Numbered from the stretch's first letter, positions 21,619-36,065 are shown. The stretch is DNA of 64,000 bases from an uncultured Clostridia bacterium (GCA_963558405.1 CAUWGC010000004.1:26395-90394), one strand, 5' to 3'. Notes: generated by a model not told the origin, from the letters alone. Made by a program: numbers and translations.

Positions 21619-21658
21619 TTATTAACCCTAAATAATAATAACTAATCTTATACAGTAA

Positions 21659-21688: not shown

Positions 21689-21697
21689 AGATATAAT

Positions 21698-21748: not shown

Positions 21749-21806
21749 ACTAAAAATGCTAATTAGTAAATATAAATTATTTATAAAAGGAAATGGGGAA
21801 ATAAAG

Positions 21807-22136: not shown

Positions 22137-22367
22137 AAACAGGCTTTACGACTTGATATCAAAAAACTGCACAACAAGGAGTAAAGAAACTTGATGACTT
22201 AGTGTTAAAAATTTAACATAAATAATAATAACAATAATAATAAAAAAATAATAATAAGAGGATAAAAAATAAAATAGGTTCGCCTTTAAAAAATTAATGT
22301 TATATAATCATCTTGTAAATTAATTTATATAATAAATATTTAGAGTTAACTTTAAATTAATTTCAAA

Positions 22368-22661: not shown

Positions 22662-22701
22662 TAAATCTAATGTAAAATTTGCAAATAGAGGATTACACAG
22701 A

Positions 22702-22721
22702 AATTCCCTAATTAGGGAATT
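22702..22721. promoter_or_regulatory. perfect 20-bp palindrome aattccctaattagggaatt (putative operator); related half-sites gggaaaattccc at 22837-22848
   Basis: Exact dyad symmetry seen in the sequence. Both sites carry GGGAA / TTCCC half-sites. Confidence 0.4.
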
Positions 22722-22917
22722 ATTGAAAAAGATAATTAAAATATTGAAATATTGAAGTAGATAAAAATCAGACTTTAAAGCAATATATTAAAGCAAGATT
22801 CCTATTTGTATCCACAAATGGTTTTTTGCATAAAATGGGAAAATTCCCAAACCCTTTTAATTTTTAATTGAAAAATCTCTTTATTAGAGATACAATAAAA
22901 TAATAGGAGGTGTAAAT

Positions 22918-23259
22918 ATGGTAAAAATTAAAGATATAGAAAAATATATAGATGATGAAATGATAAATATTATATTTAGAGAAAGAGAAGAAGGATTATA
23001 TAGTAGAAAAGAAAATCAAGATGATGCAGAAGTTATTAGTATTAAAGAAGATTACCCAGTAGATTATGATAAACTTCTAGTAGCAATAAATAATCTACCA
23101 CCACATTTTAATAATACAAGGGAAGGAATAATAGAAGCATTAGAAAGTTACTTAACAAGAGAAAATTTAATCATGGCACATGATAATGAAAAATTCTATA
23201 AAATAGGATTTTGTGATGGAATAAGAACGATATTGGAGAACATAAAAAATAGTAAATAA
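22918..23259 (+). CDS. hypothetical protein
   Basis: RBS taggaggtg. 113-aa ORF. Confidence 0.4.
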   Translation: MVKIKDIEKYIDDEMINIIFREREEGLYSRKENQDDAEVISIKEDYPVDYDKLLVAINNLPPHFNNTREGIIEALESYLTRENLIMAHDNEKFYKIGFCDGIRTILENIKNSK

Positions 23260-23270
23260 TCTAATATTTA

Positions 23271-23522
23271 CTACGATTTATTAAAATGATTATTAAAAAC
23301 ATCTGCTGAGACATTAAATACTTTAGCAAATGCAAATAATTCAAAGTCTTGAACTAAACGATTATTTGTTTCAATTTTTGAGACTTCTTTAGATGTTAAT
23401 TCAATGCCTAGTAATTGTAATTTTTCTGCCAAATCTTGTTGAGATAAGTTAGATTTTAATCTTAATTCTTTTAAGATAGAGCCAGATATATTTCTAAAAT
23501 CATTATACTTGTTAATTTTCAT
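23271..23522 (-). CDS. XRE-family helix-turn-helix transcriptional regulator
   Basis: HTH_XRE pattern LRLKSNLSQQDLAEKLQLLGIELTSKEVSKIE. RBS aaggtgag. Confidence 0.7.
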   Translation of the reverse strand: MKINKYNDFRNISGSILKELRLKSNLSQQDLAEKLQLLGIELTSKEVSKIETNNRLVQDFELFAFAKVFNVSADVFNNHFNKS

Positions 23523-23532
23523 ATTCTCACCT

Positions 23533-23601
23533 TATTCGCTTTATTATAGATATTATTTTACTATTATTTTTTTATATACATATCTCTAATAAAGCGAATA
23601 A
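23533..23601. promoter_or_regulatory. 15-bp perfect inverted repeat pair (ttattcgctttatta ... taataaagcgaataa) in the divergent XRE / operon control region
   Basis: The arms at 23533-23547 and 23587-23601 are exact reverse complements, immediately upstream of the XRE gene start. Confidence 0.35.
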
Positions 23602-23744
23602 AAAATACTGAGTATAAATCTAAAAATTATTATAAGGAAACATATTTATAAGGAAATTATATTAAATGAATTAAGAAACATTATGCAGAGAAAATGAAAG
23701 ATGATTATATATTATGAGAAATGGAAAAAAATGTTATCAAATAA

Positions 23745-23773
23745 TTGACATAAAAAGTTAAAAATGGTAAAAT
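23745..23773 (+). promoter_or_regulatory. sigma-A type promoter of the cargo operon (TTGACA-17-TAAAAT)
   Basis: -35 at 23745-23750, a 17-nt spacer, and -10 at 23768-23773, about 30 nt upstream of ATG 23806. Confidence 0.5.
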
Positions 23774-23805
23774 ATATAAGAAATATTTAATAAATTGGAG
23801 AAAAT

Positions 23806-24543
23806 ATGGAAATTAAAGATAAAGTTGTTGTAATAACCGGTGGAGCAAATGGAATAGGAAAAGCATGTGCTCAAGAATTACATAAAACATATGCAAATAT
23901 TATTATAGCAGATATTGACAAGAAAAATGGTGAAGATATTAAAAAAATATTAGGAAATAGATGCTCGTTTGTAAAAACAGATATTACTATGGAAAGAGAA
24001 GTTATAAAGTTAAAAGAGTTTATAATGTCTAAGTATGGAAGAATTGATATTTTAATTAATAATGCAGCTAAACAGACAGAAAATAGCTTTTTTAATATGA
24101 AAGTAAATGAATTTAAAAGTGTCATAGATACAAATATTAATGGAACATTCATTTGTAGTAACATATTAGGCAAAGAAATGAAAAAAGGAAGTAAGATTAT
24201 AAATATGCTTTCAGTTCATTATAATAAACCTAGAAAGAACAAATATCATTATGATGCGTCAAAAGCAGGAATTGCCATGCTAACTAAAGAAATGGCACTT
24301 GAATTGATTGATAAAGGTATAACCGTTAATGGAATTGCATATGGAGCATGTAATACTCCTATGAATGCAAATTGGATTAATAACATTGAGAAAGTTAATG
24401 AAACAATAAGTAAAATACCATTAAGATGGATAGCTGAACCTGAAGAAATAGCTAGATTTGTTAGAGTAATATTAGAGGACTTTAGTGATTATGCTACAGG
24501 AAGTATTTTTAATATAGATGGAGGGAGAAGTCTTACTAATTAA
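23806..24543 (+). CDS. short-chain dehydrogenase/reductase (SDR) family oxidoreductase
   Basis: VVVITGGANGIGKA glycine-rich NAD(P) motif, a NNAA segment, and a YxxxK region (YDASKAG). Confidence 0.8.
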   Translation: MEIKDKVVVITGGANGIGKACAQELHKTYANIIIADIDKKNGEDIKKILGNRCSFVKTDITMEREVIKLKEFIMSKYGRIDILINNAAKQTENSFFNMKVNEFKSVIDTNINGTFICSNILGKEMKKGSKIINMLSVHYNKPRKNKYHYDASKAGIAMLTKEMALELIDKGITVNGIAYGACNTPMNANWINNIEKVNETISKIPLRWIAEPEEIARFVRVILEDFSDYATGSIFNIDGGRSLTN

Positions 24544-24563
24544 AGTATATTTTGGAGGAATAA

Positions 24564-25733
24564 ATGCACTATTTATTAGAAAAATATATTAAGGAAAAAT
24601 TAAATATTGTATTAAAGAAAGTACAGATTCTATTAAAAAAATCAGAAAAGGAAATTAAATTGTTACTTGAAAAAGAGGATTATAGCATTAATTATATAAA
24701 TTTTCAAAATAATTCAATTAATGGTGTTATAGAGAAGTGTAATAAAAAGTTTTTCTTTAAAATGTTAGGTAATCAAGATTTTGATAATGAAATAATAGGA
24801 TATATAAAAATAAAAAATGCATTGCCAGTTAATAAAATAATAGAAATATATAAATTGCAGAACTGTTATATTATTATTTATGAATACGAAAATACAATAA
24901 GTGATAATGAAGGGTTATTAAATGATTTTTTAGTAAAAAATGATATAGAAATAACAGATGATTCAAAACAAGTAATTAATAGAATAGTAAACTTGTATAA
25001 TAGCAGTTTTAAAGTAACTATTAATAAAAATGTATATCCAATGAAGCAATTTTTTCAAGAAAGAATAAAGTCAAGGCTTAAAAAATGGTATAGTAAAGAA
25101 AAATTTTTTGATTATAATGTTAATATTAATGGGATGGAATCTAGAAAAACTACAGAAATTATAAATGAAGCTAATAATTTTTTTGAAAAAAAGTGTAAAT
25201 TAGAATGTTCTTTATCACAAGGAGATCCAAATACTTTAAATATAGGAACAAAACCTATTTTCTTTGACTTTGCAACATCAGGATATAATCCAATAATTTG
25301 CGAATTCTCTGCAATGTTTTGGTCAGTATTAATAGCAGATGCTTATTTTTGTCCCAAATATCATCCAAAATCATATTACAATCATAATAAAGTCTTTGAA
25401 AATATTGATAAGTTTAATCCAGACTTAAGATATGAGATAAATGATAAAGAGAAAAAAATAAAAATACAATCTAACATTAAATCAAGTAGAATAAGAATCA
25501 ATTTTATGAAAGAGTATATAAAAATGATAGAGACCTTAGAAATAAACATAGGAAAAGAAATCATATATTTTTTATTAATGAGAATACTTTGTATATTTGA
25601 TATAAGAACAATGACAAAAGAAGATTATTTTTATAGTATATTTATCTTACATTATTTATATGAAAATATTTCAGAAGATGTTTATACTAGCTTGAAAAAT
25701 ATAATAGATAATTTTGATATTATAGGAGGATAA
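24564..25733 (+). CDS. phosphotransferase-family kinase (APH/choline-kinase fold)
   Basis: Brenner-like motif SQGDPNTLNIG and the DFE-type motif IFFDFATSGYNP. The hinge IIYEYE. RBS ggaggaataa. Confidence 0.5.
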   Translation: MHYLLEKYIKEKLNIVLKKVQILLKKSEKEIKLLLEKEDYSINYINFQNNSINGVIEKCNKKFFFKMLGNQDFDNEIIGYIKIKNALPVNKIIEIYKLQNCYIIIYEYENTISDNEGLLNDFLVKNDIEITDDSKQVINRIVNLYNSSFKVTINKNVYPMKQFFQERIKSRLKKWYSKEKFFDYNVNINGMESRKTTEIINEANNFFEKKCKLECSLSQGDPNTLNIGTKPIFFDFATSGYNPIICEFSAMFWSVLIADAYFCPKYHPKSYYNHNKVFENIDKFNPDLRYEINDKEKKIKIQSNIKSSRIRINFMKEYIKMIETLEINIGKEIIYFLLMRILCIFDIRTMTKEDYFYSIFILHYLYENISEDVYTSLKNIIDNFDIIGG

Positions 25734-25736
25734 TAG

Positions 25737-26459
25737 ATGAATGAAATATATGAAAAAATATCAGCTCAATTACCAATAAAATACAAAGAGTCTATATTTA
25801 AATATATAGCTGAACTGAAGGATAATTTGGGGGATGTTTTAAAATTAGTTTTATTAATAGGTAGCAGCTCTAGTGGACATGTTGTAGAAGGTTGGAGTGA
25901 TATAGATACTATATTAGTCTTAGAAAATTATAAAATAGAATATATAAATATAATAAAAAAAATTGTACAAAAATATGATATAAAGATAGGAAATACGATA
26001 TACAGTAAAAAGGAATTTGAAAATAAAAGAATAAATCCTAAAACTTATTATTATTTATTATTAGTACAAGAAAATTACATAAAAATACAGTATAATTCAT
26101 CTGATTTATATATACCAAAAGTTACCATAAAAGAATGTCAAGACCAGTATATGACATGGTTGATGGAGCATTTTCATTCATATAAAAGAATGTGGCTATA
26201 TCAAGAAATTTCAGAAGAGAGAATAAGAGAAATATTTAAAAATACATATTTGATTATGAAGGCGATTTTAATAATTAATAATTATCGTCCTCAAAATTAT
26301 GAACAAGTATTCAAGCTATATTCGGAAAAATTTAATTATAAGAAATTTAATTATAAAAAATTTATAGAAGGATATCAAAAGAAAGAATACGACAAAGAGG
26401 AAATAATTAATTTTGGAAAGGAGTTTAGTGAAGAAATTTCAAATAATTTAAAAGTATAG
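25737..26459 (+). CDS. Pol-beta-superfamily nucleotidyltransferase (ANT/Lnu-like minimal NTase)
   Basis: GSSSSGHVVEGWSDIDTILVL = GS-x9-DxD nucleotidyltransferase motif. Confidence 0.55.
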   Translation: MNEIYEKISAQLPIKYKESIFKYIAELKDNLGDVLKLVLLIGSSSSGHVVEGWSDIDTILVLENYKIEYINIIKKIVQKYDIKIGNTIYSKKEFENKRINPKTYYYLLLVQENYIKIQYNSSDLYIPKVTIKECQDQYMTWLMEHFHSYKRMWLYQEISEERIREIFKNTYLIMKAILIINNYRPQNYEQVFKLYSEKFNYKKFNYKKFIEGYQKKEYDKEEIINFGKEFSEEISNNLKV

Positions 26460-26468
26460 GAGGCGAGT

Positions 26469-27599
26469 ATGGAAAAGCAATTTAGGAATAGGAAAACATT
26501 TTTTGATTTAGATATGGAAAATGATGATAGTTATTTTGCTACATTATATTGTACATTAGGAGGAGCTAATAAAAAAAGAGCCAAAATGAATAAATTAGCT
26601 TTAGCTTATTTGAATGATAAATCATTAACAGAGGAAGAAAAAATTACTGCAAAAAAAATATTGGATGGAACAATATATGAAGAAAAAAAGAAAGAGTTTG
26701 AACATTGCCAATTATGTTCAGATAAATTTATATCAGAAATATTACCAAATATATCTAATAAATATGATAATTGGGAAATATGTAGTCCTACTCATCCGTA
26801 TACACCGGCTGGTTTGATGATTTATTTAAAAAATAGAAAAAAGTTACATACTGAGAATTTACAAGATTTATCAAAAGAGCAATTTGATGAAATAATTCAA
26901 ATCATGAAAGACATATATATAAAATTATCAAACGAATCTGAATACAATGTTGTTGGAATTAATATTTTATTTAATCAAATATCAAAATCTCAATTGTGTA
27001 TTCATGGTCATTTAGAAACTATGATTGCTGATATAGATAAATTAGGATTGGGGTGTGAAATTAAAGATGAGCAACCATATGACATTTTAGCAAGTTTATT
27101 AAATGAACAAATAGAGGATAGAAGAGGAGTATATAAAGAAAAAGAAGGAATTAGAATTGATTTAAGTATAGTAGACTCAATAGAGGCATTGAAGATATTA
27201 GGAAGGTACGAATCAAAAATGAAACAGATTATTTCACACGGAAGAAAGATACAAAAGGGTGAAATAAAAAGTAAAAACGATATTGATAATCTATTACTAC
27301 ATAAAATGAGTCCTGCACCAGTGAATTATGTATATATGACCTACTATAGAGATAAGTTTTTTTTATCAATCATACCAGAGATAATTTTGGAACCAATAAA
27401 ATCTACAAGAGATATCAAAAATGAAAGCGATTTGTATTCACTAAAAATTAATCAATATGCACAAGACAATGAAGAGAAAATTATGAAACAATGTTCTCCA
27501 CTTGTAAGACCAAGCATAAAAGTTTCAAAGGATTGCGAATCTGCAATTAATATAAGTAATCTAAAAAAAGATATAACAAAAATATTGGAAGAAAGATAG
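26469..27599 (+). CDS. putative HIT/GalT-like nucleotidyl transferase or hydrolase (weak)
   Basis: CQLC ... HPYTPAG ... CIHGHLE arrangement reminiscent of GalT/Ap4A-phosphorylase branch motifs. The assignment is tentative. Confidence 0.3.
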   Translation: MEKQFRNRKTFFDLDMENDDSYFATLYCTLGGANKKRAKMNKLALAYLNDKSLTEEEKITAKKILDGTIYEEKKKEFEHCQLCSDKFISEILPNISNKYDNWEICSPTHPYTPAGLMIYLKNRKKLHTENLQDLSKEQFDEIIQIMKDIYIKLSNESEYNVVGINILFNQISKSQLCIHGHLETMIADIDKLGLGCEIKDEQPYDILASLLNEQIEDRRGVYKEKEGIRIDLSIVDSIEALKILGRYESKMKQIISHGRKIQKGEIKSKNDIDNLLLHKMSPAPVNYVYMTYYRDKFFLSIIPEIILEPIKSTRDIKNESDLYSLKINQYAQDNEEKIMKQCSPLVRPSIKVSKDCESAINISNLKKDITKILEER

Positions 27600-27602
27600 A
27601 AT

Positions 27603-29129
27603 ATGATAAAAAATAGTTATATAATAGAAAAAATACCAACAGAGACAATTGAATATGCAATGAAGGATAGTAAGAGCATACCGAGAATAAGAACCTCAAA
27701 TACCATTGCTAATGGTATTATAGAAAGCGGTTTTTTTTATAAAAAATTAAACAGTGATAAATTTAGAAAATTATATAAAGGAAACTATATACAATTATGG
27801 AAAGACAATTATGAAATATTAAAAAATATTATTCCTTTAAACGATATTTATTGTATAGTGGAAAATGAGAGTGGAGATATATATGAATTTTCTAAAAGTA
27901 TATCGGAAAATAAATTTTTAAGTGGTGGAACAATTCAATCATGGAATGATTTAGAAAGATTATACTTAAAAATATTAAATTATATTAATAGAATTATTCA
28001 ATATCAAAAAACAAGTAAACAATTAATAGGAATAGAAACTGCAATATGGAATTTTACGATAGATGGTAAACTATTTGATTTAGATCCACCAAGATTTTTA
28101 AGAAATGAAGAAGATTCCTCTTTTACTAGAAAAGATGATATAAATCAATGTAAAAGAACAATTTATAGAAATTTTACTGAAATTGGAATGAAGACTAATT
28201 TATTAGCGACTGTTATAATAGGATTACAGGATGGTAATTTTTTTATACCAGATTTACCAAGTTATTGGCTTGACATACTTACACAGCATTTAATACAAAG
28301 TATTGAAGATAAAAATAGAAGACAAAATGTAGAAAGAATATTAAGAGGAAAAGGCAATTTTAAATCTAATTTTACAAAACATCCAATAGATATAATTTTA
28401 GAAGAAAAGAATAAAGAAATATTAGGAGGAATTAATATGGAAAAATATAATAAAGAACAACAATTTATATTTGTAACTGGTCCATCGGAGTCAGGAAAAA
28501 GTGGAGGAATTAATCATATTAAGGCAAAATACCAACAAGTAAAACATTTAAAAATACGAGATATATTTCCAGCAGTATATAGAGATTCAAAATGTAATTT
28601 AACATATGATGAATGGTATGATAATGAATCAAAAAATAACTTTGAAAGTTTTTGGGATAGATATATACAAAAAGCAAGAGAGATGAGTAATGGTGCGGAT
28701 GTAGTAATAATGGATACAATGTATGGAGTAAAAGAAATCCAATATTTGTACAAAAAATTACGACAAAATGTAGGAGTTTTATATATTGATGCTCCAGAAG
28801 AAGAAAGAATAAGGCGAGAATATCAGAGATTAAGAACAGACTCACCATATACTGATAGAAAGGCAGACCTTTCAATAACGATGGAACAAGTGGCTGAAAG
28901 AACTAGAAAAAAGGATGCAAAAAAGGAAAGATTGGAAACATTTGAATATAAAGACCTAGCGTATGAACAGGATGGAACAATTGTAGTAAGACCAAATGGA
29001 ATAAAATTTTCTAAAGTAATAAATAATAATGGAACAGTAGAAGAATTATATGAAAAATTAGATTTATATATAGAAAGTGAGATTTCTAAAGTAAAAAGTA
29101 GAAAAGAAAAAACACAGGAGGAAAGATAA
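27603..29129 (+). CDS. two-domain protein with a C-terminal P-loop small-molecule kinase domain (CPT/zeta-toxin-like)
   Basis: Walker A FVTGPSESGKSGGINHI and the downstream VIMDTMYG. The N-terminal ~280 aa are unassigned. Confidence 0.5.
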   Translation: MIKNSYIIEKIPTETIEYAMKDSKSIPRIRTSNTIANGIIESGFFYKKLNSDKFRKLYKGNYIQLWKDNYEILKNIIPLNDIYCIVENESGDIYEFSKSISENKFLSGGTIQSWNDLERLYLKILNYINRIIQYQKTSKQLIGIETAIWNFTIDGKLFDLDPPRFLRNEEDSSFTRKDDINQCKRTIYRNFTEIGMKTNLLATVIIGLQDGNFFIPDLPSYWLDILTQHLIQSIEDKNRRQNVERILRGKGNFKSNFTKHPIDIILEEKNKEILGGINMEKYNKEQQFIFVTGPSESGKSGGINHIKAKYQQVKHLKIRDIFPAVYRDSKCNLTYDEWYDNESKNNFESFWDRYIQKAREMSNGADVVIMDTMYGVKEIQYLYKKLRQNVGVLYIDAPEEERIRREYQRLRTDSPYTDRKADLSITMEQVAERTRKKDAKKERLETFEYKDLAYEQDGTIVVRPNGIKFSKVINNNGTVEELYEKLDLYIESEISKVKSRKEKTQEER

Positions 29130-29573
29130 ATGAAAAAAAATAGAGCTTCAGCAATAATTCCATATGAGGATGGTTTAATTGTTATTAGAAGAATAAAAGG
29201 AGATAATGAAAATAGAGAAGAATACTATACAATTCCTGGAGGAGGACAAGAAGAAGGAGAAAGTATAGAAGAAGCAACATTAAGAGAAATTCGAGAAGAA
29301 TTAGGTATAGAAGTAAAATTGACAGATAAATGTTATGAATTAGAAAGTCAAGGGAGAAAGCAGTATTTCTTTGTTGCTGAATATAAATCAGGAAAAATTG
29401 GAAGTGGAAAAGGTGAAGAAATGACTAATATTAATTATGAAAAATATGGAGCATATATTCCTGAGATAATATCAGTAAATAAAATAAAAAATATAAGATT
29501 ATTACCGAAAGAGATAAAAGATATAATAATATCTGATTTGAATGATATATTTAAAAAAGAGATATCGAGTTAA
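29130..29573 (+). CDS. NUDIX hydrolase
   Basis: Nudix box GGGQEEGESIEEATLREIREELGIE. Confidence 0.8.
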   Translation: MKKNRASAIIPYEDGLIVIRRIKGDNENREEYYTIPGGGQEEGESIEEATLREIREELGIEVKLTDKCYELESQGRKQYFFVAEYKSGKIGSGKGEEMTNINYEKYGAYIPEIISVNKIKNIRLLPKEIKDIIISDLNDIFKKEISS

Positions 29574-29587
29574 AGAAAGAGATATAT

Positions 29588-30517
29588 ATGAATATTTTTA
29601 TTTCAACATATAGTGATAAAAAGAATTTATACAAATGTAAATTAAATAAAAAGGGTGAAATATCTATTGTAAAGGAAATTCAAACGGAAGAATATTTATC
29701 TTATTTACATAGAAGAAATTCTGAGATTGCTGTAGCTTTAAAAAAGTCAAAAAATAGTAATAGAGCTGGAATTGCAGTATATAATACAGATTTAAAGTGT
29801 ATATATAAATATGATAATGAAAGCTCATATACTCATATTTTTATGAATAGGAAATATATGATAGCAGGAAGCTATCATAATGGTAATATACTTATAATAA
29901 ATAATAAAAATAAAGAACATATAGTTATTCCTTATAATAGCTCAAAAATACATAATGTAGGAAAATTTATAAAAAAATTATATTATGCTGTAGATATAGA
30001 AAATAGTAAAATTTATCTTTACACAATAAATAATACAAAATATGAATTGAAGAACACAATTAACTTGAATAAATTAGATAAACCTAGACATTTATTAGTA
30101 TATAAAAATCATATTTATATTTTATGTGAGAATACATCAAGAATCATAAATATGGAATATAAAAATAATACTGTTCATATAAAACAGGAATTAACAACAC
30201 TTAATAAAAATGAAAATATTATTAATATGGCTTCAGCGATACGAAGAGATAAAAGGTATATATTTGTCTCAAACAGAGGTGAAAATACCATTACAATATA
30301 TAAAATTAATAAATATGGATACCTAAAAAAAGTAAATTATTTTGATGTTAAAGGAAAAACACCGAGAGATTTTAATGTAGTAAAAAATGGAAAATATATA
30401 ATTATAGGAAATGAAGATACAAATGAAGTTGTAACATTTAAAATGAATTATAACAAAAGTATAATTTCATATATTAATAAAGTTACAATAGAAAAGCCAG
30501 TTTGTATAGAAAAATGA
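29588..30517 (+). CDS. hypothetical protein (beta-rich, possibly propeller-like)
   Basis: 309-aa ORF with no confident motif. Confidence 0.35.
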   Translation: MNIFISTYSDKKNLYKCKLNKKGEISIVKEIQTEEYLSYLHRRNSEIAVALKKSKNSNRAGIAVYNTDLKCIYKYDNESSYTHIFMNRKYMIAGSYHNGNILIINNKNKEHIVIPYNSSKIHNVGKFIKKLYYAVDIENSKIYLYTINNTKYELKNTINLNKLDKPRHLLVYKNHIYILCENTSRIINMEYKNNTVHIKQELTTLNKNENIINMASAIRRDKRYIFVSNRGENTITIYKINKYGYLKKVNYFDVKGKTPRDFNVVKNGKYIIIGNEDTNEVVTFKMNYNKSIISYINKVTIEKPVCIEK

Positions 30518-30525
30518 GGTGAAAT

Positions 30526-31092
30526 ATGGAAAACAAAATAATTTTAATACGACATGCTGAATGTGTTGGAAATATAAGTAATAGGCTATCTGGAATAACA
30601 GACTTTGAGTTGACTGATAATGGGAAAAGACAGGCACAAAAATTAGCAAAAGAATTGCGTAATAAAAATATAGATGTAATATATAGTAGTCCTTTAAGAA
30701 GAGCAATGGATACTGCAAAATACATTGCTAGAAATAATAATATTAAAATTATAAACAAAGATGAAAGATTAATTGAAATAAACTATGGGGTTTGTGACGG
30801 TATGTCTTGGAATAAAATAGATAATAAATATCCATTAGTAAGAAAGTTATGGAAAGAAATGTATAAATATCCAATATTAATTCCTGGACAAGAAGAATTT
30901 ATAGATGTTTCAAAAAGGATGAATGAAGCAATAAAAGATATATCAAATAAAAATCAAGGAAAGACTATATGTATTGTTTCTCATGGCATAGCAATACAAG
31001 CATTTGTGAGTTTTTATTATAATGACATAACAAAGAAAATAGGTGAAATTCAACAATTAAAAAATGCAGAATACATAGAATTTATAATATGA
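30526..31092 (+). CDS. histidine phosphatase family protein (PGAM-like)
   Basis: N-terminal IILIRHAECVGN (RHG motif) and RLSGITD. RBS gaggtgaaat. Confidence 0.7.
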   Translation: MENKIILIRHAECVGNISNRLSGITDFELTDNGKRQAQKLAKELRNKNIDVIYSSPLRRAMDTAKYIARNNNIKIINKDERLIEINYGVCDGMSWNKIDNKYPLVRKLWKEMYKYPILIPGQEEFIDVSKRMNEAIKDISNKNQGKTICIVSHGIAIQAFVSFYYNDITKKIGEIQQLKNAEYIEFII

Positions 31093-31127
31093 ATAGAAAA
31101 GATATAGGAGAAGGAGTGAATAATATC

Positions 31128-31661
31128 ATGTATAATCGAATTTCTATTGTTGGTGGATCTGGTAGCGGTAAAAGTACATTATGCAATATTTTATCAAAAG
31201 AGTTAAATCTCCCAGCAATACATTTAGATGCCATTAATTATGAACCTAATTGGGTTGAAATAGATAAAGCAGAAAGAGATAAAATAATATCTGATAAATC
31301 AAATGAAGATAAATGGATTATAGATGGAAATTACAATAAAACACTTAAGGAACGTTTTGATAAAGCTGACTTGATAATTTGGCTAGACTACTCAACATTT
31401 ATGCATTTAAAAGGTGTTTTTAAAAGATATTTTCAAATGCGTAATAGCGAAAGACCGGAAATACCTGGTTGTAAAGAACGAATAGATTTCACATTTATAA
31501 AATATGTTGCTACATATAATAAAAAGAAAAGACCTATAATTGCAGATTATTTAAAAGATATACCAAAAGATAAAGTTTTAATATTTAAAAAACAAAAAGA
31601 TTTAAATGTGTGGCTTAAAGAATTTACACACAATGACAATATTTTAGATAATATAAAGTAA
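31128..31661 (+). CDS. P-loop kinase of the topology-modulation (FlaR-like) / adenylate-kinase-like family
   Basis: ISIVGGSGSGKSTL ... IHLDA ... WIIDGNY matches the FlaR-like pattern. RBS ggagaaggagtg precedes ATG 31128. The track ORF starts at 31089. Confidence 0.6.
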   Translation: MYNRISIVGGSGSGKSTLCNILSKELNLPAIHLDAINYEPNWVEIDKAERDKIISDKSNEDKWIIDGNYNKTLKERFDKADLIIWLDYSTFMHLKGVFKRYFQMRNSERPEIPGCKERIDFTFIKYVATYNKKKRPIIADYLKDIPKDKVLIFKKQKDLNVWLKEFTHNDNILDNIK

Positions 31662-31699
31662 AATGATAAGTAAAAGCAATATTAAGGAATATAAAATTT

Positions 31700-32282
31700 A
31701 TGAATAATATGAAAAAATACTATAAAAATACAGAAAATGCACTACCTAATATAATAATAAGGAAATTTATAGAAATGAAGATAAAACCATCAAATGCTAT
31801 TGACTTAGGATGTGGAGCCGGCAGAGATACAATATATTTAATAAAAAATGGTTGGAATGTTTTATCAATAGATAAAGAAGATACAGGAAAATTTATATCT
31901 AGTAAGCTAAATGAAGAAGAGATAAAAAGATTTAGATTTGTTAGACAAGATTTTGAGAATATTGAATTAGAAAAAAATAATTTATTAGTTGCTAATTTTA
32001 GTATTCCTTTTTGTAAAAAAGATTGTTTTAATGAACTTTGGAATAAAATAACAAACAGTATTTTAAAAGAACGGATACTTTGTGGGAAATTTTTTTGGAT
32101 TAAACGATTCATGGGCAGAAATAAAAGAACAAATGGTATTTTTATCTAAAGTGCAAGTATTAGATTTATTTAAAGATTTATTTGAAATAATAGAATTTAA
32201 TGAAATCGAGAAAGATGGAAAAACAGGATTAGGAAAAATGAAACATTGGAATATATATAATTTTATAGCAAAGAAAAAATAA
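31700..32282 (+). pseudogene. class I SAM-dependent methyltransferase disrupted by a frameshift at a T7 run (~32086-32092)
   Basis: Motif I (AIDLGCGAGRDT) and the post-I acidic residue (LSIDKED) lie in the 31700 frame. The C-terminal MTase-like sequence (FFGLNDSWA...) continues in the 32082 frame. Confidence 0.5.
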
Positions 32283-32297
32283 TGAGGGGAGAATGAA

Positions 32298-32771
32298 ATG
32301 GATTTAACTTTAGATGTTGAAGATTATAAACTAAATATAAGAACTGGAGGAATAATTATACACAATAATAAAGTATTGGCTCATAAAAATATACACAAAG
32401 ATCATTATTGTTTGCCAGGAGGCAGAGTAGAAATAGGAGAGAGTTCAGAAAAAACTATAAAAAGAGAAATAAAAGAGGAATTAGGAAAACAAATAGAGAT
32501 AATAGGATATGTAGCAACAATTGAAAATTTTTTTGAAATGGAAAATAAGAAATATCATGAAATATATTTTTTACATAGTATAGAGTTTGAAAATGAAGAA
32601 GATAAAAAAATAGAGTATACTATGAAGAATAAAGAAGGAAAAGAATATTTGCAATATGAATGGTTAGATTTAGATAAAATAGAAGAATATAATATTTTAC
32701 CGAAATGTGTAAATCAGATATTAAAAGAGAATAAATTTCCAATACATAAGATTAATAATGATTTGAATTAA
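32298..32771 (+). CDS. NUDIX hydrolase
   Basis: Nudix box LPGGRVEIGESSEKTIKREIKEELG. Confidence 0.75.
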   Translation: MDLTLDVEDYKLNIRTGGIIIHNNKVLAHKNIHKDHYCLPGGRVEIGESSEKTIKREIKEELGKQIEIIGYVATIENFFEMENKKYHEIYFLHSIEFENEEDKKIEYTMKNKEGKEYLQYEWLDLDKIEEYNILPKCVNQILKENKFPIHKINNDLN

Positions 32772-32795
32772 AATATAGTTATAAATGGAGATAAT

Positions 32796-33257
32796 ATGTT
32801 AAAAATATATAATTTAAAAGATAGACAAGAATACATTGAAGAAGTTGCAATACTCACTCAAAAAGAATGGGGCAAAAGCAATTTGAGTGAGAAAGAATTA
32901 AAAAATAAAATTTTAAAAAAGATAGAGAAAATAAAAGGATTATTTAATGATAAATATTATTGCAAACTGATATTATTGGACAATAATGAGTTAATAGGAT
33001 TTATATCTATATTTCCAAGTGATGGAAATGAAAGAAAAGATTTATTACCATGGTATGCAACAATGTATGTTAAAGAAGAATATAGAGGGAAAGGGTATTC
33101 AAAAATACTAAATAATGCGATTTTAGAAGAGGCAAGAAAAAGAAATATAAAAAAATTATATTTGAAAACAGAATTAGAAAATTATTATGAAAAGTTTGGA
33201 GCTCAATATTTAGAAAATATAAATGAAAAAGAAAAGTTATATTACTTCGATATATAA
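32796..33257 (+). CDS. GNAT family N-acetyltransferase
   Basis: Motif A region VKEEYRGKGYSKILNNAILEEAR. Confidence 0.65.
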   Translation: MLKIYNLKDRQEYIEEVAILTQKEWGKSNLSEKELKNKILKKIEKIKGLFNDKYYCKLILLDNNELIGFISIFPSDGNERKDLLPWYATMYVKEEYRGKGYSKILNNAILEEARKRNIKKLYLKTELENYYEKFGAQYLENINEKEKLYYFDI

Positions 33258-33282
33258 AAAATAAAGAGTGGAGTTGTTGAGA

Positions 33283-33912
33283 ATGAAAGAAACTATAATT
33301 TATTTAATTAGACATGCTGAAACTGTTGATGAAAATGGAATTAGAAATACCAATGAAGATTCTCAAATGATTAATGAAAAAGAAATATTATCTGTAGAAG
33401 GAGAAGAACAAGCTAAAAGACTAAGCGAGAATGTTGAGTTAAATAATATTGATATTATTTGGTCAAGTAGTTATACAAGAGCAAAGGCTACTGCAAAATA
33501 TATTGCTAATACTAATAATTTACCAATTAATTTAGATAGTAACTTAAGTGAAAGAAAACTAGGAAATTTAAAAGAATTGGGTGAATTTATGAAAGATAAA
33601 AAAACAAGGGATCCTTCGCAAGAACAATTATTAGATAGAGAATTTAAAACTTCTAATGGAGAGAGTGCTGAAGAAACAAGACAAAGAATGAATAAATTCT
33701 TTAATAAAATTCTTAAAGAATACGAAGGAAAAAGAATTGCAGTAATTAGTCATGGAGGCTCAATAAAGTTCTTTTTATTAAATTGGTGTATAGTAAATGA
33801 AAATGTTAAACTTGTCTATAACGAAAATACAATATTAAGCATAAAATCACCATGTTTATTAAAATTAACTTTTAGAAAAAATGAATTGATTAATTTACAA
33901 CAAATAGACTAA
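33283..33912 (+). CDS. histidine phosphatase family protein (PGAM-like)
   Basis: IYLIRHAET RHG motif. The later SHGG matches the second catalytic His region. The ATG at 33283 has RBS agagtggag. The track start 33268 is a GTG. Confidence 0.65.
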   Translation: MKETIIYLIRHAETVDENGIRNTNEDSQMINEKEILSVEGEEQAKRLSENVELNNIDIIWSSSYTRAKATAKYIANTNNLPINLDSNLSERKLGNLKELGEFMKDKKTRDPSQEQLLDREFKTSNGESAEETRQRMNKFFNKILKEYEGKRIAVISHGGSIKFFLLNWCIVNENVKLVYNENTILSIKSPCLLKLTFRKNELINLQQID

Positions 33913-34076
33913 TAAAAAAGAAAAGACATGTAATTGTTAAAATTCTAAAGGATATTCTCAAAGGTGAAGTTTTGAAGTTTAAGAAATAAAAGAGCCTAAA
34001 CAAGTAGCTTAAAGAATGAAAACATATTAGATAGTCTAAAATAAAAAATAAGATATTTAAGTTTAAGAAAGTACAA

Positions 34077-34106
34077 TAAAATACTTTCTTTTTTTATGCT
34101 TAAAAA
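34077..34106 (+). terminator. rho-independent terminator ending the cargo operon
   Basis: Stem agaaagta/tactttct followed by a T6 run. Confidence 0.6.
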
Positions 34107-34116
34107 GAAAAAAATT

Positions 34117-34168
34117 AAAAAATTTTGGGAAAATAGCACATTTCATTTCGCCATTTATTTATAGAATA
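34117..34168 (+). repeat. internal direct repeat copy 2 (aaaaaattttgggaaaatagcacatttcatttcgccatttatttatagaata)
   Basis: See copy 1. Identical over ttttgggaaaatagcacatttcatttcgcc. Confidence 0.7.
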
Positions 34169-34496
34169 ACAAAAGTCTTATTAAACATTAAAGATAAAAA
34201 ATTATTAGTAATAATTTTTAAAACACACTAATATTTTTAATTGGGAGTGAAATTAAATGGAAAATGTAAAAGAAACCTATACCGTTGATGGTAAAGATTA
34301 TACTGTTATAACTCGGTACAAAAGAAAATGCTAATAGTGATGAAATATATAATATTTTAGTCAGATATGCACTAGAAAAAATTGATGAATATGTAAAATA
34401 ATAACTATTCTGTAGGTTAGCATTTTATAAAATTTTTTTGTATAATCAAAATAGCTGTTTAAGATTAGTTGTTATTCGGAAAGGAGGACAACTAAT

Positions 34497-36065
34497 ATGC
34501 AAAATTCAATATATAAAGTAGCAGGATATTTAAGATTATCAAGAGAGGATGGCGATAAAGAAGAAAGTGATAGTATAGGAAGTCAAAGAAGTATAATTAC
34601 TCATAAATTAGAAGAATTAGGAGAAGAATTTGAGTTAATTGATTTTTATATTGATGATGGTTACACAGGACTAAATACTGACAGACCAGCATTTCAAAAA
34701 ATGCTAGAAGATACCCAAAAAGGTTTAATAAATTCTATAATAACAAAAGATTTATCAAGATTGTCAAGAAATAGTTTTGAAGCAAACTATTTTATTGAAA
34801 AATACTTTTTGGAAAATAATATTAGATATATATCAGTACTGGACAATGTAGATACATATATTAAAAATTCTAATAATGATATGATACAATTTAAAACTCT
34901 AATAAATGATTGGTATAGTAAAGACATATCAAAAAAAGTTAGAAGCGGAGTATGGGCTAGAAAAGAAAAAGGATTATACTTAGCTGCAATAGCTCCTTAT
35001 GGATATATTAAAGACCCTAAAAATAAAAATCATCTCATGATTGAGCCTGAAAGAGCATTAGTAGTAAAAAGAATTTTTAATATGTTTGATAATGGGATTT
35101 CAATAGCAGAAATAGCTAAAAAATTAAAAGAAGAAAAAATATATTGCCCAGGATATTACGATTATGGTGGCTCAAGAAGTGGAGATGACTATAAGTGGAG
35201 AACAGATAGCATAAAAAGAATTTTGAAAAGTCAAGTATATATAGGAAATACTGAATATGGAAAGAAAATGAATTTAAGCTATAAATCCAAAAAAGTTAAA
35301 AATATTCCAAGAGAAGATTGGAAAATAGTACTAAATACACACGAGGCAATTATAGACAAAGAAATTTTTAATAGAGTTCAAGCAAAAATAAACTTAAATA
35401 AAAAAGTAAGGCATAAAAAATTCAATTGGATGTTAAATGGTTTAGTATTTTGCAAAGAGTGTGGAAATAAAATGGTACTTAAAATTAAAAGAGATAAGAA
35501 TGGGAATATTACAAATAAAATAATTGTATGTGCTAGTTCCATGAATTCAAGAAAAAATGCTGAATGTGAAAGAAAAAGTAAATCTATAAAAGAAGAAGTA
35601 TTAAAAAAGATAGTTGTACAAAGTGTAAATAAGAAAATTAATCATATTATTAATAATCAAAAACTTGAAGAAATAACAATGAGAGAATATAAAAATAAGA
35701 CAACGGAAGTTTTAGATAAAGCTATTAAAAGTATAGAAGACAAATTATTAAAAACAGAAAAGACAATAAACTCTTTATATGAAGATTATACGAATGGCAT
35801 TATTGAGGAAGAGGACTATAGAAGATTTTATAAAAGTGATGTGGAAAGAAGAAATACATTAAAATCAGAAATTAATAACTTACTAAAACAAAAAGAAGAA
35901 AAAGGGGCAATAACTAAAGAAGAATTAGTTACAATTATTTCAAAGTTATCAAATATAGAAGAATGGACATCAGAAAAATTATCTGAACTTATATATAATA
36001 TTGAAATAGATAAACAAAACAATATTTATATAAATTATAGATATGATGTAATAGGTAAATTATAA
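34497..36065 (+). CDS. large serine recombinase (CcrA/SpoIVCA/TndX family), first of a tandem pair
   Basis: N-terminal resolvase catalytic domain YLRLSREDGD...SQR. Recombinase domain. Zinc ribbon CKECGNK...CASS...C. C-terminal coiled coil. RBS aaggagga. Confidence 0.9.
   Translation: MQNSIYKVAGYLRLSREDGDKEESDSIGSQRSIITHKLEELGEEFELIDFYIDDGYTGLNTDRPAFQKMLEDTQKGLINSIITKDLSRLSRNSFEANYFIEKYFLENNIRYISVLDNVDTYIKNSNNDMIQFKTLINDWYSKDISKKVRSGVWARKEKGLYLAAIAPYGYIKDPKNKNHLMIEPERALVVKRIFNMFDNGISIAEIAKKLKEEKIYCPGYYDYGGSRSGDDYKWRTDSIKRILKSQVYIGNTEYGKKMNLSYKSKKVKNIPREDWKIVLNTHEAIIDKEIFNRVQAKINLNKKVRHKKFNWMLNGLVFCKECGNKMVLKIKRDKNGNITNKIIVCASSMNSRKNAECERKSKSIKEEVLKKIVVQSVNKKINHIINNQKLEEITMREYKNKTTEVLDKAIKSIEDKLLKTEKTINSLYEDYTNGIIEEEDYRRFYKSDVERRNTLKSEINNLLKQKEEKGAITKEELVTIISKLSNIEEWTSEKLSELIYNIEIDKQNNIYINYRYDVIGKL

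Follow-up and report, generated by a model that had tools for sequence, protein, structure and literature searches.

We conclude that the 13-gene operon at positions 23806 to 33912 of the window (the whole 64,000-nucleotide stretch of Clostridia DNA analyzed here) is a composite, in which a conserved core of about half of the genes is accompanied by add-ons. Our preferred reading, to which we give a probability of roughly 45%, is that the heart of the operon constitutes a single conserved, undescribed small-molecule pathway rather than a set of independent enzymes. Its members would be g02 to g06, with g08, g11, and g13 as partners of the same function and g01 and g07 as frequent accessories. 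The core enzymes probably attach a nucleotide tag to a small molecule resembling a sugar or nucleoside and later strip it off. The genes and the features around them are as follows.

21606 to 37618, plus strand: integrative element carrying the operon, 16,013 bp, inside a cwlD-like N-acetylmuramoyl-L-alanine amidase gene
23271 to 23522, minus strand: divergent Xre-type HTH regulator (HTH_3, 9.6e-9)
23745 to 23773, plus strand: sigma-A-like promoter sequence ahead of the operon, extended TG
g01, 23806 to 24543, plus strand: classical SDR oxidoreductase (glucose-1-dehydrogenase/FabG-like), recurrent accessory (Pfam adh_short_C2, 6e-50)
g02, 24564 to 25733, plus strand: APH/ELK-fold small-molecule kinase of an orphan family, core
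g03, 25737 to 26459, plus strand: putative Pol-beta-fold nucleotidyltransferase with a C-terminal helical domain, core
g04, 26469 to 27599, plus strand: two-lobed HIT enzyme of the GalT/Ap4A-phosphorylase branch, orphan family, signature core gene
g05, 27603 to 29129, plus strand: N-terminal kinase-like domain (aa 1 to 280) and C-terminal P-loop NMP-kinase-like domain (aa 285 to 500), core
g06, 29130 to 29573, plus strand: NUDIX hydrolase of the type accompanying the core in its closest relatives (PF00293, 2.4e-12)
g07, 29588 to 30517, plus strand: 7-bladed beta-propeller lactonase (6-phosphogluconolactonase-like), occasional accessory (PF10282, 1.4e-37)
g08, 30526 to 31092, plus strand: histidine (PGAM-type) phosphatase (His_Phos_1, 8.8e-45)
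g09, 31089 to 31661, plus strand: FlaR-like adenylate-kinase-type P-loop protein, add-on (NF005994, 4.4e-50)
g10, 31700 to 32282, plus strand: TehB-like SAM methyltransferase, frameshifted, add-on (TehB, 1.6e-10)
g11, 32298 to 32771, plus strand: second NUDIX hydrolase (PF00293, 5e-14)
g12, 32796 to 33257, plus strand: GNAT acetyltransferase, add-on (Acetyltransf_1, 8.9e-14)
g13, 33268 to 33912, plus strand: second PGAM-type phosphatase (His_Phos_1, 2.3e-31)
34066 to 34096, plus strand: AT-rich hairpin and T-run, probable terminator of the operon, read by eye
34497 to 37582, plus strand: two tandem large serine recombinases, 522 and 505 aa (Resolvase, Recombinase, and Zn_ribbon_recom domains)

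The first-pass annotation had called a codirectional operon of 13 genes here, and 13 ORFs with the same boundaries are indeed found, all on the plus strand, with no competing long ORF on the opposite strand. It had given intergenic gaps of 4 to 38 nt with one 4-nt overlap; the overlap holds, but the computed gaps (from g01 to g13: 20, 3, 9, 3, 0, 14, 8, -4, 38, 15, 24, and 10 nt) range from 0 to 38 nt. The sigma-A promoter that it placed at 23745 is the top-scoring plus-strand match 5' of the operon (TTGACA-17-TAAAAT, 11/12, with an upstream TG). However, this DNA is 24% GC, and matches of the promoter type turn up in it no more often than in shuffled sequence (138 found, 144.8 expected), so the assignment of this site as the operon promoter is only plausible. 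The terminator placed at 34077 is visible as a hairpin (AGAAAGTA-N8-TACTTTCT) followed by T7, although the terminator scanner, whose rule calls for three G-C pairs, did not report it; we consider it a probable intrinsic terminator. The Xre-type regulator is a candidate local repressor of the operon. A 22-bp inverted repeat (23532 to 23601) lies between its gene and the promoter, and the closest sister element (L011) has an 82-aa ORF in the matching position.

None of the families of g02, g03, g04, and g05 has a Pfam or NCBIfam model. Fold comparison agrees with the earlier calls of an APH-type phosphotransferase and a HIT/GalT-like protein: g02 is an APH/ELK kinase for which methylthioribose kinase ranks top, and g04 falls in the GalT/Apa2 branch of HIT, forming a tiny family of 32 clusters among 1.84 billion proteins. 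Catalytic motifs are invariant across homologues of the module, and for g02, g04, the NUDIX hydrolases, and the PGAM-type phosphatases, we regard fold and motif assignments as established. The earlier Pol-beta assignment of g03 stands by virtue of the invariant GS...DxD motif only (G42-S43 ... D55-x-D57), with weak matches to ANT(4')-II, CdnD, and PDC-S09. The gene called a CPT/zeta-type kinase, g05, does encode a P-loop (GxSESGKSG, 293 to 301), but a generic one. Its matches to AAA_18 and CPT are weak, its profile match to the archaeal AdkA-like kinase 3lw7 reaches 1.6e-4, and alignment with Zeta covers the P-loop alone; this half appears only generically NMP-kinase/CPT-like and not specifically Zeta-like. 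That call also missed the conserved 280-aa N-terminal kinase-like domain, which shows [D/E]145-x4-N150 and D159-L-D161 in the alignment and an hhalign probability of 5% in fold comparison. The two halves are joined in some loci and are separate genes in others (L017, L019, L023, L025, L027, L034, and L037).

The first-pass annotation had proposed looking for these families together in other genomes. Homologues of g02 to g05, with a NUDIX gene and usually a PGAM-type phosphatase gene, are syntenic at about 30 independent loci; these come from MAGs of gut Clostridia and Bacilli, and identities are 40 to 45%. This is the opposite of the lack of co-occurrence that the annotation had named as grounds for refutation. 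The set g02-g03-g04-g05 plus NUDIX, with or without PGAM, occurs at 40 to 47% in L006, L018 to L027, L029, and L032 to L038 and at 54 to 90% in L011 to L014, L016, and L039. Among the 32 loci with g04, g05 is found in 24, g02 in 19, PGAM in 17, and g03 and/or NUDIX, counted as one merged cluster, in 26; the loci that miss partners are mostly short contigs. Fusions also link the parts of the module (Zeta-kinase::g04 in P0087, L008, and L028; NUDIX::g02 in P0232; g03::NUDIX at L034:404-1642), and gene order is reshuffled with content retained across four architecture classes. The dN/dS values of g02 to g08, 0.11 to 0.29, indicate purifying selection. The conserved synteny and the fusions argue for one pathway and not for independent drug-modifying enzymes.

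Both NUDIX hydrolases, as first annotated, have intact Nudix boxes, and both PGAM-like phosphatases match His_Phos_1. Orthologues of g06 lie immediately 3' of g05 in L011, L012, and L039. The second hydrolase, g11, is 32 to 40% identical to the core-adjacent NUDIX of 12 distant loci and has the motifs CLPGGYVExGE, ENFF, and FKWI in common with them; it is of the type orthologous to the NUDIX of the distant class A/B modules. The phosphatase g13, which may start at the ATG at 33283, is a paralogue of g08 (34% amino acid identity) and is also 34% identical to the phosphatase immediately downstream of g04 in L030.

The SDR and lactonase genes are less regular companions of the core. Homologues of g01, an SDR as annotated but scoring below equivalog cutoffs, adjoin the core in L006, L014, L016, L025, L029, and L039. 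The gene previously listed as unknown, g07, is instead a lactonase, below cutoff for the NCBIfam Pgl models, with homologues beside the core in L012 and L014. The family calls for g09, g10, and g12 (FlaR-like kinase, frameshifted SAM methyltransferase, and GNAT) were sound, although g09 scores 170 bits against the NF005994 (PRK08118) cutoff of 215. The g10 frameshift lies in a T8 run (32090 to 32097) between reading frames at 31700 to 32149 and 32082 to 32282, and the truncated product is also called in metagenome contigs L001, L003, and L004; the gene may be a pseudogene or a phase-variable add-on. Among the other loci examined, g09 has no homologue near the core, g12 is missing from all, and conserved linkage to the core was found for none of the three genes, which are probably unrelated cargo acquired later. 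For the core, the earlier suggestion that the enzymes act in concert on a small molecule is the best reading, with a molecule resembling a nucleotide or sugar as the target. This comes closest to the proposed salvage or detoxification of a modified nucleoside and does not extend to these three unlinked genes.

The view of the genes as a single cassette carried by a mobile element is borne out by the 16,013-bp non-phage element, most of which the operon occupies, and its two recombinases, which are 34% identical to each other. It splits the cwlD-like gene, a sporulation gene, into fragments at 21439 to 21605 (ending ...LDAGHGTPDE) and 37619 to 38164 (an Amidase_3 C-terminal fragment), with the common core CACCAGATGA. 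Its removal in silico rejoins a 238-aa cwlD-like ORF, and L011 shows the same insertion. The label "SCC-like" fits only loosely, as the top NCBIfam matches of the recombinases, XisF and CcrB, are far below cutoff and the site is within an amidase gene. In that position, the element resembles a sporulation-gene intervening element. The module is carried by serine-recombinase elements in the window, L011, L012, L014, L016, and L035 and lies at differing chromosomal sites in Bacilli MAGs.

Such mobility, a narrow and patchy distribution, and an Abi_2 gene 1 kb from the module in L024 are consistent with a nucleotide-based conflict system (anti-phage, anti-plasmid, or counterdefense), which we nevertheless consider rather unlikely. 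Under this reading, what the kinases, nucleotidyltransferase, and HIT enzyme make or rebuild would be derived from a nucleotide: an antiviral analogue of a nucleotide, a signal, or, once an NADase has attacked, compounds derived from NAD+ or ADP-ribose. NUDIX and phosphatase would curb self-toxicity or act as an off-switch; forward (kinase and nucleotidyltransferase) beside reverse (NUDIX and phosphatase) enzymes fit signal or toxin turnover equally well. Zeta-toxin-type kinases with NUDIX are fused to relatives of g04 or encoded next to them (L008, L009, L015, and L028). On a conjugative-type element, g04 relatives also have adenosine deaminases, a nucleotidase, and a radical-SAM enzyme resembling AprD4 as neighbors, a set that recalls antiviral-nucleotide producers (NT5C, deaminases, and the radical-SAM enzyme surround the L028 fusion; NT5C and deaminases are near that in L008). 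However, the operon has no recognizable sensor, nuclease, pore, TIR, SIR2, or other effector, PADLOC models give weak generic matches only (NUDIX to PDC-S07 and nucleotidyltransferase to PDC-S09/M05A), and literature searches found no such system described. IMG/VR viral contigs hold no copy of the module, g02 to g05 have no PHROG matches, and neighbors in Bacilli MAGs are mostly housekeeping genes (murG-murB-ftsQ, truA-rplM-rpsI, and recG). Zeta toxins phosphorylate UDP-GlcNAc and replace the P-loop half of g05 in some loci, which could instead point to salvage or bypass of a cell-wall nucleotide-sugar: g02 would phosphorylate an amino sugar (GlcNAc or MurNAc) at C1, g04 or g03 would convert it to the UDP form, and the P-loop kinase, NUDIX, and phosphatase would control the phosphorylated UDP-sugar pool, perhaps with a link to spore-cortex synthesis or a bypass of MurA inhibition. 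The GalT-like g04 and the combination of kinase, GalT, and SDR, which echoes Leloir and GNB/LNB-type pathways, are in keeping with this, as are hosts that all appear to be spore-forming Firmicutes and neighbors such as cwlD (window, L011, and L013), an amidase (L024), D,D-carboxypeptidase (L014, L032, and L033), murG-murB-ftsQ (L020), and a PASTA kinase (L037). We think it unlikely, since the cwlD, dac, and spoIVA neighbors reflect integration sites of the carrier elements and not function, the P-loop half is not specifically Zeta-like, g01 is not a GalE-type extended SDR, and there is no linked sugar transporter or MurQ/NagZ-type recycling gene; the carbamoyltransferase, deaminase, and nucleotidase partners better suit nucleoside or aminoglycoside-like chemistry.

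It is very unlikely that the operon is a multidrug resistance cassette, as first proposed, in which kinase, nucleotidyltransferase, and acetyltransferase would each inactivate a drug (an aminoglycoside, lincosamide, chloramphenicol, or nucleoside antibiotic). Despite the SCC-like carrier, no gene attains the cutoff of a curated NCBIfam resistance model, and the matches of g03 to ANT(4')-II (15.9 bits, cutoff 350) and of g12 to AAC(6') (28 bits, cutoff 265) are weak. Four-gene synteny, fusions, and coinheritance across 55 to 60% sequence divergence are unlike independent resistance genes; the GNAT is confined to this locus, the HIT phosphorylase, two NUDIX hydrolases, two phosphatases, SDR, and lactonase have no drug-inactivation role, and the plasmid collection holds no match to the operon. 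We give the slimmest chance to accretion, that is, unrelated small housekeeping-like genes hitchhiking on the element with no common function. The unlinked g09, g10, and g12, the frameshift in g10, the g08 split (pseudogenized) in one metagenome copy (L003), sister elements with 5 of the 13 genes (L011, g02 to g06 only) or 7 of the 13 (L012, g02 to g08), and the duplicated NUDIX and PGAM genes, which suggest stepwise gain, speak for it; for g02 to g05, NUDIX, and PGAM, it is contradicted by the co-occurrence in about 30 loci, the fusions, and the purifying selection.

For the pathway that we favor, we infer the sequence of reactions, the logic of a nucleotide tag, the class of substrate, and the role, whether to make, salvage, or detoxify a compound. 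Initially, g02 would phosphorylate a substrate resembling a sugar or nucleoside at a free hydroxyl, possibly an anomeric or ribosyl one, as its closeness to methylthioribose kinase suggests. A nucleotide would then be joined to the phospho-intermediate by g03, g04, or both, with g04 forming a covalent NMP-His181 intermediate and swapping NMP between phosphate-bearing acceptors. Pol-beta nucleotidyltransferases usually nucleotidylate hydroxyls, not phosphates, so these two roles are interchangeable guesses. The two-domain kinase g05 might add a further phosphate, after which lineage-specific enzymes would tailor the tagged intermediate: here the SDR and lactonase, elsewhere a NodU/TobZ-type carbamoyltransferase or the AprD4-like radical-SAM enzyme. 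The carbamoyltransferase is encoded immediately upstream of g03 in L023, L025, L034, and L037, and L025 also has a HAD 5'-nucleotidase; the enzymes co-occurring in other loci all fit sugar or nucleoside chemistry. Finally, NUDIX would cut the pyrophosphate link, with the PGAM-type phosphatase stripping the remaining phosphate, so that the product is released or recycled. A biosynthetic role is weakened by the finding that the loci examined show no consistent linkage of the core to a scaffold-building enzyme, a glycosyltransferase, a transporter, or an exporter. The proposed scheme can be likened to the biosynthesis of the phosphonate FR-900098, in which nucleotidylation, tailoring, and release by a NUDIX hydrolase follow the same logic (FrbH, FrbF, and FrbI).

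We conclude that the 13-gene operon is, as judged by comparison with its relatives, a composite of a conserved core, recurrent accessory genes, and three unrelated add-ons, one of which is already a pseudogene. The first-pass annotation had described a single tightly packed operon, and this is borne out with corrections: all 13 ORFs are present on one strand, with spacing of 0 to 38 nt and a single 4-nt overlap (g08/g09). The GC content of the operon DNA (23 to 26%) is similar to that of the remaining window. The genes, named g01 to g13 in order, lie among the following features:

21756-22136: replication-initiator-like ORF
22368-22661: TnpV-like ORF, weak match
23271-23522, minus strand: Xre-type HTH gene, divergent, 5' of the operon
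23745-23773, plus strand: promoter-like TTGACA-17-TAAAAT with extended TG, 11/12, the best plus-strand match 5' of the operon
23806-33912: the 13 operon ORFs
about 34066-34096: AT-rich hairpin and T7 run, readable from the sequence as a terminator, failing the scanner's G-C criterion
34497-37582: two tandem large serine recombinases, ending 36 nt from the right junction

Promoter-like matches of this kind are not commoner here than in shuffled sequence, so the operon promoter is plausible and unproven. Between it and the Xre-type gene lies a 22-bp inverted repeat (23532-23553/23580-23601, 95% complementary, 26-nt spacer), which is a candidate operator.

DNA around relatives of g04, the HIT enzyme, was taken from genomes, metagenomes, and assemblies, and all window proteins were mapped onto those loci. 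Genes for g02 (an APH-type kinase), g03 (a putative Pol-beta nucleotidyltransferase [NTase]), g04, g05 (a two-domain kinase), a NUDIX hydrolase, and usually a 173-aa PGAM-type phosphatase recur together in MAGs of uncultured gut Clostridia and Bacilli, at 40 to 47% protein identity. Across 32 g04 loci, g05 is found in 24, g02 in 19, the PGAM gene in 17, and g03 and/or NUDIX (which share one cluster owing to a fusion protein) in 26; the shortfalls are mostly due to short contigs. Order varies and content is constant among four architecture classes:

Class A: g02-g03-g04-g05-PGAM-[SDR]-NUDIX
Class B: g02-[carbamoyltransferase]-g03-NUDIX-g04-g05N-g05C-PGAM
Class C: [SDR]-NUDIX-g02-g04-g05-kinase-g03-[lactonase]
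Fourth class: that of the window

Module genes are also found fused: a Zeta-type kinase to g04 (protein P0087 and loci L008 and L028), NUDIX to g02 (protein P0232), and g03 to NUDIX (L034). Depending on the locus, g05 is encoded by one gene or two. Genes g02 to g08 are under purifying selection (dN/dS of 0.11 to 0.29 against the two closest relatives). The sister element, L011 (90% identity), carries only g02 to g06, and L012 (79%) carries g02 to g08. No counterpart of g09, g10, or g12 was found in any other module locus, while the core recurs, and this is the basis for dividing the operon as we do. The coordinated action originally proposed for the operon genes is thus supported for the core by conserved co-occurrence, fusions, and purifying selection. 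The operon as a whole gave no megablast match to plasmids or phages, the core genes had no match in PHROGs, and a literature search on the combination of HIT, NTase, kinase, NUDIX, Zeta, and defense returned no description. On these comparisons, the core is an undescribed module of known enzyme superfamilies, four of them represented by orphan families.

The predicted structure of g04 (pLDDT 92) fits the two-lobed (tandem) HIT fold of the GalT branch of the HIT superfamily. In a 32-sequence alignment, H79-C80-x-x-C83 is invariant, as are H179 and E183 of the motif C177-x-H179-G-H181-x-E183, and H181 is present in 31 of the 32 sequences. This follows the GalT order of a zinc site and then the His-x-His-x-Gln nucleophile, with Glu (E183) in place of Gln, a putative equivalence drawn from motif order rather than from superposition. 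No Pfam or NCBIfam model matched g04, including GalP_UDP_transf, HIT, DUF4931, and similar models. In an exhaustive HMM search of 1.84 billion proteins, the family came to only 32 clusters at 50% identity, every one of them from uncultured Firmicutes of the gut, with no bridge to canonical HIT proteins; at 90% identity, the homologues group into about 110 clusters. Viral contigs, scanned with a profile of g04, had no copy of it. Identity to the GalT-branch enzymes Apa2 and ADP-glucose phosphorylase is just 10 to 13%, and g04 has an extra N-terminal segment of 75 aa relative to them.

The families of g02 and g05 are of similarly small size. Neither g02, g03, and g04 nor residues 1 to 280 of g05 have a useful match among Pfam (to E ≤ 10) or NCBIfam models; for g02 this includes the APH family (PF01636). 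When profiles of the four core alignments were compared with PDB sequences, the P-loop half of g05 gave the sole match, and g04 matched nothing. Structurally, g02 has the bilobal fold of APH/eukaryotic-like kinases (ELK) and resembles solved members. Across 35 sequences, its K66, E76, Q219-G-D221-x4-N226, and D235 do not vary; their catalytic roles (beta-3 Lys, alpha-C Glu, (H/Q)xDxxxxN loop, and metal-binding Asp) are assigned by motif rather than by structural superposition. In g03, the Pol-beta motif hG[GS]-x9-13-DhD is present, with G42-S43 ... D55-I-D57 invariant in 15 sequences; profile matches are weak (CdnD and aminoglycoside NTase at E values of 0.3 to 0.4, PADLOC PDC-S09 at 2e-5). 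The C-terminal P-loop kinase domain of g05 carries GxSESGKSG and matches an archaeal AdkA-like kinase by profile (1.6e-4), with weak Pfam matches to AAA_18 (6e-4) and CPT (0.02). Its conserved N-terminal domain has putative kinase-like [D/E]xxxxN and DLD motifs; as a possible kinase paralogue of g02, it was given a probability of 5% by hhalign. Aligned with the FlaR-like protein g09, g05 matches in the P-loop alone. Assignment of g05 as a Zeta toxin kinase was rejected, as there is no PF06414 match and hhalign to a linked Zeta kinase aligns only the P-loop.

The remaining genes belong to recognizable families. By Pfam and NCBIfam, g01 is an SDR of the classical type, g09 a FlaR-like P-loop protein, and g12 a GNAT acetyltransferase. 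Both g06 and g11 are NUDIX hydrolases (PF00293, 47 and 53 bits against a cutoff of 21), with the Nudix box GX5EX7REUXEEXGU intact in 15/15 aligned sequences, and g11 is orthologous to the NUDIX type of classes A and B. The g08 and g13 products are branch 1 histidine phosphatases (153 and 109 bits against a His_Phos_1 cutoff of 21.7) with the catalytic RH[GA] motif at the N terminus (LIRHAECVGN and LIRHAETVDE); both fall below every NCBIfam equivalog cutoff, and g13 resembles the phosphatase adjoining g04 in L030. Listed before as unknown, g07 is a seven-bladed beta-propeller lactonase (PF10282, 1.4e-37). The TehB-like methyltransferase gene g10 has a frameshift in the T8 run at 32090-32097, and the same truncated product occurs in independent metagenome contigs. 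The accessory genes seem to be decaying. In one metagenome copy, g08 is split in two (L003:7618-8171). A remnant FlaR-like gene after g13, suggested by a 110-nt DNA repeat, was dropped for want of protein-level support.

The operon occupies 10 kb of a 16,013-bp element (21606-37618) that has no phage genes and splits a cwlD-like N-acetylmuramoyl-L-alanine amidase gene into fragments at 21439-21605 and 37619-38164. The core common to both junctions is CACCAGATGA, and in silico removal of the 16,013 bp restores a 238-aa Amidase_3 ORF. From family and length only, we infer that the split gene is the sporulation amidase cwlD, and the carrier would appear to be a novel intervening element in a sporulation gene. 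In the way of a directionality factor, it has only candidates: a small ORF (34257-34334) and a shared 40-nt repeat. This direct repeat is 93% identical between 21695-21734, 5' of the replication-initiator-like ORF, and 34113-34152, 5' of a 25-aa ORF and the recombinases. A 22-nt inverted pair lies near it (21634-21655/34455-34476), and the two may be shared promoter/operator sequences for the control of element functions or a site bound by a recombination directionality factor. The element lies between two giant genes. The product of one (13118-18343) is a surface protein of 1741 aa in which thioester and DUF11 domains are present; that of the other (38845-47052) is a GH94 protein of 2735 aa, similar to cyclic beta-1,2-glucan synthase/phosphorylase, in which there are supersandwich and glucoamylase-like domains. 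Right after the amidase 3' end is a 12/12 sigma-70 consensus promoter with extended TG (38168-38196), and downstream of it is an ORF of 163 aa (38237-38728) that matches no family.

Elements with the same module split such genes elsewhere. The L014 element interrupts a D,D-carboxypeptidase (Peptidase_S11) gene of which both halves were found (5800-6237 and 18728-19516), the N-terminal half of a D,D-carboxypeptidase gene lies directly upstream in L032 (464-778) and L033 (812-1117), and in L035 (5195-7964) a module-bearing serine-recombinase element splits spoIVA. It thus seems that elements directed at sporulation and cortex genes have the module as a recurrent cargo. In L006 (97-2494), a truncated D,D-carboxypeptidase gene has a serine recombinase immediately beside it; in L007 (819-1787), with the same module, the gene is intact. 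This difference upstream of the same module is why the dac gene appears to be a hotspot for serine-recombinase elements independent of the module. Our search of the literature on intervening elements did not find cwlD, dacB, or spoIVA as targets.

The enzymes that partner the core in other loci all have small molecules (sugars, nucleosides, or nucleotides) as their substrates. In four loci, the gene immediately 5' of g03 encodes an O-carbamoyltransferase of the NodU/CmcH/TobZ type (Pfam, 3e-68). Eight loci have SDR genes, lactonase genes are present in two loci in addition to the window, and L025 encodes HAD pyrimidine-5'-nucleotidase-like and methyltransferase-like proteins. The fusions of g04 with a Zeta-type kinase (L008 and L028) have as neighbors an NT5C nucleotidase, adenosine deaminases, and a radical-SAM enzyme. 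With the L028 copy of the last as the query, the best solved relative is AprD4 (6fd2, 2e-7), the sugar-deoxygenating dehydratase of apramycin biosynthesis. This variant locus may be a nucleoside-analogue pathway. Adenosine deaminase genes stand on both sides in L028 (2437-9041) and on one side in L008 (6382-14645), and the L008 locus is on a conjugative-type element (PcfJ, ArdC, SSB, and primase). Across loci, the core has no constant neighbor among transporters, glycosyltransferases, nucleases, pores, or other effectors.

The reading we favor, with a probability of 0.45, is that of a single pathway in which a sugar- or nucleoside-like molecule is tagged, tailored, and then stripped of its tag; the pathway would make, salvage, or detoxify this molecule. 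The kinase g02 would phosphorylate a hydroxyl, possibly anomeric or ribosyl, and g03 and/or g04 would couple a nucleotide to the phospho-intermediate. GalT-branch enzymes work via a covalent NMP-His intermediate, and g04 would do likewise through NMP-His181. A further phosphate might come from g05, and the intermediate might then be tailored by the SDR, the lactonase, or carbamoyl-, methyl-, or acetyl-transferases. Finally, NUDIX would cut the pyrophosphate link, and the PGAM-type phosphatase would take off the last phosphate. A bolder proposal, which we regard as doubtful, would make the module a mobile weapon or shield of gut spore-formers, with a new HIT nucleotidyl-transferase family. As preferred cargo of sporulation-gene elements (cwlD, D,D-carboxypeptidase, and spoIVA), presumably excised during sporulation, it would make or neutralize a previously unknown compound, phosphorylated and resembling a nucleoside or aminoglycoside; a nucleotide analogue with antiviral or antibacterial action would be one example.

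Other functions can be imagined for the same enzymes. RNA-end repair or decapping, suggested by NUDIX, HIT, polynucleotide-kinase-like, and PGAM proteins, was set aside because the carbamoyltransferase, nucleotidase, deaminase, SDR, and lactonase partners indicate small molecules. The mobility and patchy distribution of the module, its links to Zeta kinases, and the pairing of forward with reverse enzymes would suit a nucleotide-based conflict system; however, there is no recognizable sensor or effector and no phage copy, and we consider this unlikely. PADLOC-DB v2 gave no set of significant matches to one defense system (g11 to g13 were screened in part). Its matches were generic and weak at best (NUDIX to PDC-S07, the NTase to PDC-S09/M05A, and P-loop to mad8/BrxF), with none for g02, g04, and g05. 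Salvage or bypass of cell-wall UDP-sugars is suggested by the recurrence of cell-wall neighbor genes; these neighbors, however, are largely explained by where the carrier elements have integrated, and such a pathway is a rather poor candidate.

The first-pass annotation had suggested coordinated action, with multi-drug resistance as one of three hypotheses, and it is this hypothesis that is not supported. Every curated resistance model scores far under its cutoff: g03 reaches 15.9 bits for ANT(4')-II against 350 and g12 reaches 28.4 bits for AAC(6')-Ia against 265, and g02 matches none of the NCBIfam APH/ANT/AAC resistance models. Independent resistance genes would also not retain the synteny of the module, and a resistance cassette is accordingly very improbable. 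That the 13 genes share no common function is scarcely credible, being contradicted for the core, although it is probably true of g09, g10, and g12.

The core genes are carried by at least three different kinds of integrative element. Selection, cohesion through rearrangement and fusion, and mobility form a pattern that usually marks a selectable trait. Conserved, mobile, and maintained by selection, the module is wholly uncharacterized. Identification of its substrate would assign a function to several orphan enzyme families and add a new reaction to the GalT branch of the HIT superfamily. It might also uncover, in the gut microbiome, a nucleotide-tagged metabolite or a form of resistance or immunity chemistry that is new. 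Through the carrier elements, the genes for a cwlD-like amidase and a D,D-carboxypeptidase, together with spoIVA, join those sporulation-related genes known to be interrupted by non-phage elements, and the carriers show that such elements can have conserved metabolic cargo.

Among known pathways, Leloir/GNB/LNB sugar activation combines a GalK or NahK kinase (NahK having the APH fold), the HIT uridylyltransferase GalT, and the SDR GalE. The module likewise encodes an anomeric-type APH-fold kinase, a GalT-branch HIT nucleotidyl-transferase, and an SDR. It differs in that g04 has no sequence match to GalT Pfam/NCBIfam models and has E183 where GalT has Gln, the SDR is classical rather than GalE type, and no sugar transporter or phosphorylase is linked. 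Beyond these enzymes, the module has a Pol-beta NTase, a kinase with two domains, a NUDIX hydrolase, and a PGAM phosphatase. In FR-900098 biosynthesis, a nucleotide is attached by the nucleotidyltransferase FrbH, the intermediate is tailored (FrbF is a GNAT), and the NUDIX enzyme FrbI releases it. The operon shares with that pathway an NTase, a GNAT, and a NUDIX in one cluster, and the proposed mechanism shares its attach-tailor-release logic. In contrast, the operon lacks phosphonate-forming enzymes (PEP mutase), its NTase is of another fold family, its extra kinases and HIT enzyme have no counterpart, and its hosts are gut Firmicutes rather than actinomycetes.

Zeta/PezT toxin systems are approached through mobile-element context and through g04 homologues that adjoin a PF06414 Zeta_toxin kinase (L009 and L015) or are fused to one (L008 and L028). 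However, the P-loop domain of g05 in the window lies outside the Zeta_toxin family, no epsilon/PezA antitoxin is recognizable there, and the module has five to seven enzymes, unlike a two-gene addiction system. A minimal variant consists of a g04 homologue and a PezT-like Zeta_toxin kinase (L009:10001-12804 and L015:626-2894); in L009, a 65-aa ORF between them is a possible antitoxin, and a NUDIX gene follows the kinase.

The carrier had been called SCC-like, which holds for its tandem large serine recombinases at one end of a non-conjugative chromosomal cargo cassette, as in SCCmec, and not for the details. The recombinases score below the Ccr cutoffs (CcrB, 110 and 86 bits against 900; CcrC, 78 against 900; CcrA, 52 against 700), integration is inside a protein-coding amidase gene rather than at the rlmH 3' end, and no resistance gene was identified. 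Intervening elements are closer, among them skin, which lies in sigK. The nearest described analogue is gin, a non-phage element in gerE of Bacillus cereus (PMC5595907). Like these elements, and gin in particular, the carrier is non-phage, has more than one serine recombinase, and splits a sporulation-related gene whose frame is restored by precise deletion; unlike them, it targets a cwlD-like amidase gene (related elements with the module split D,D-carboxypeptidase and spoIVA genes), and its cargo is a conserved enzyme module rather than phage remnants.
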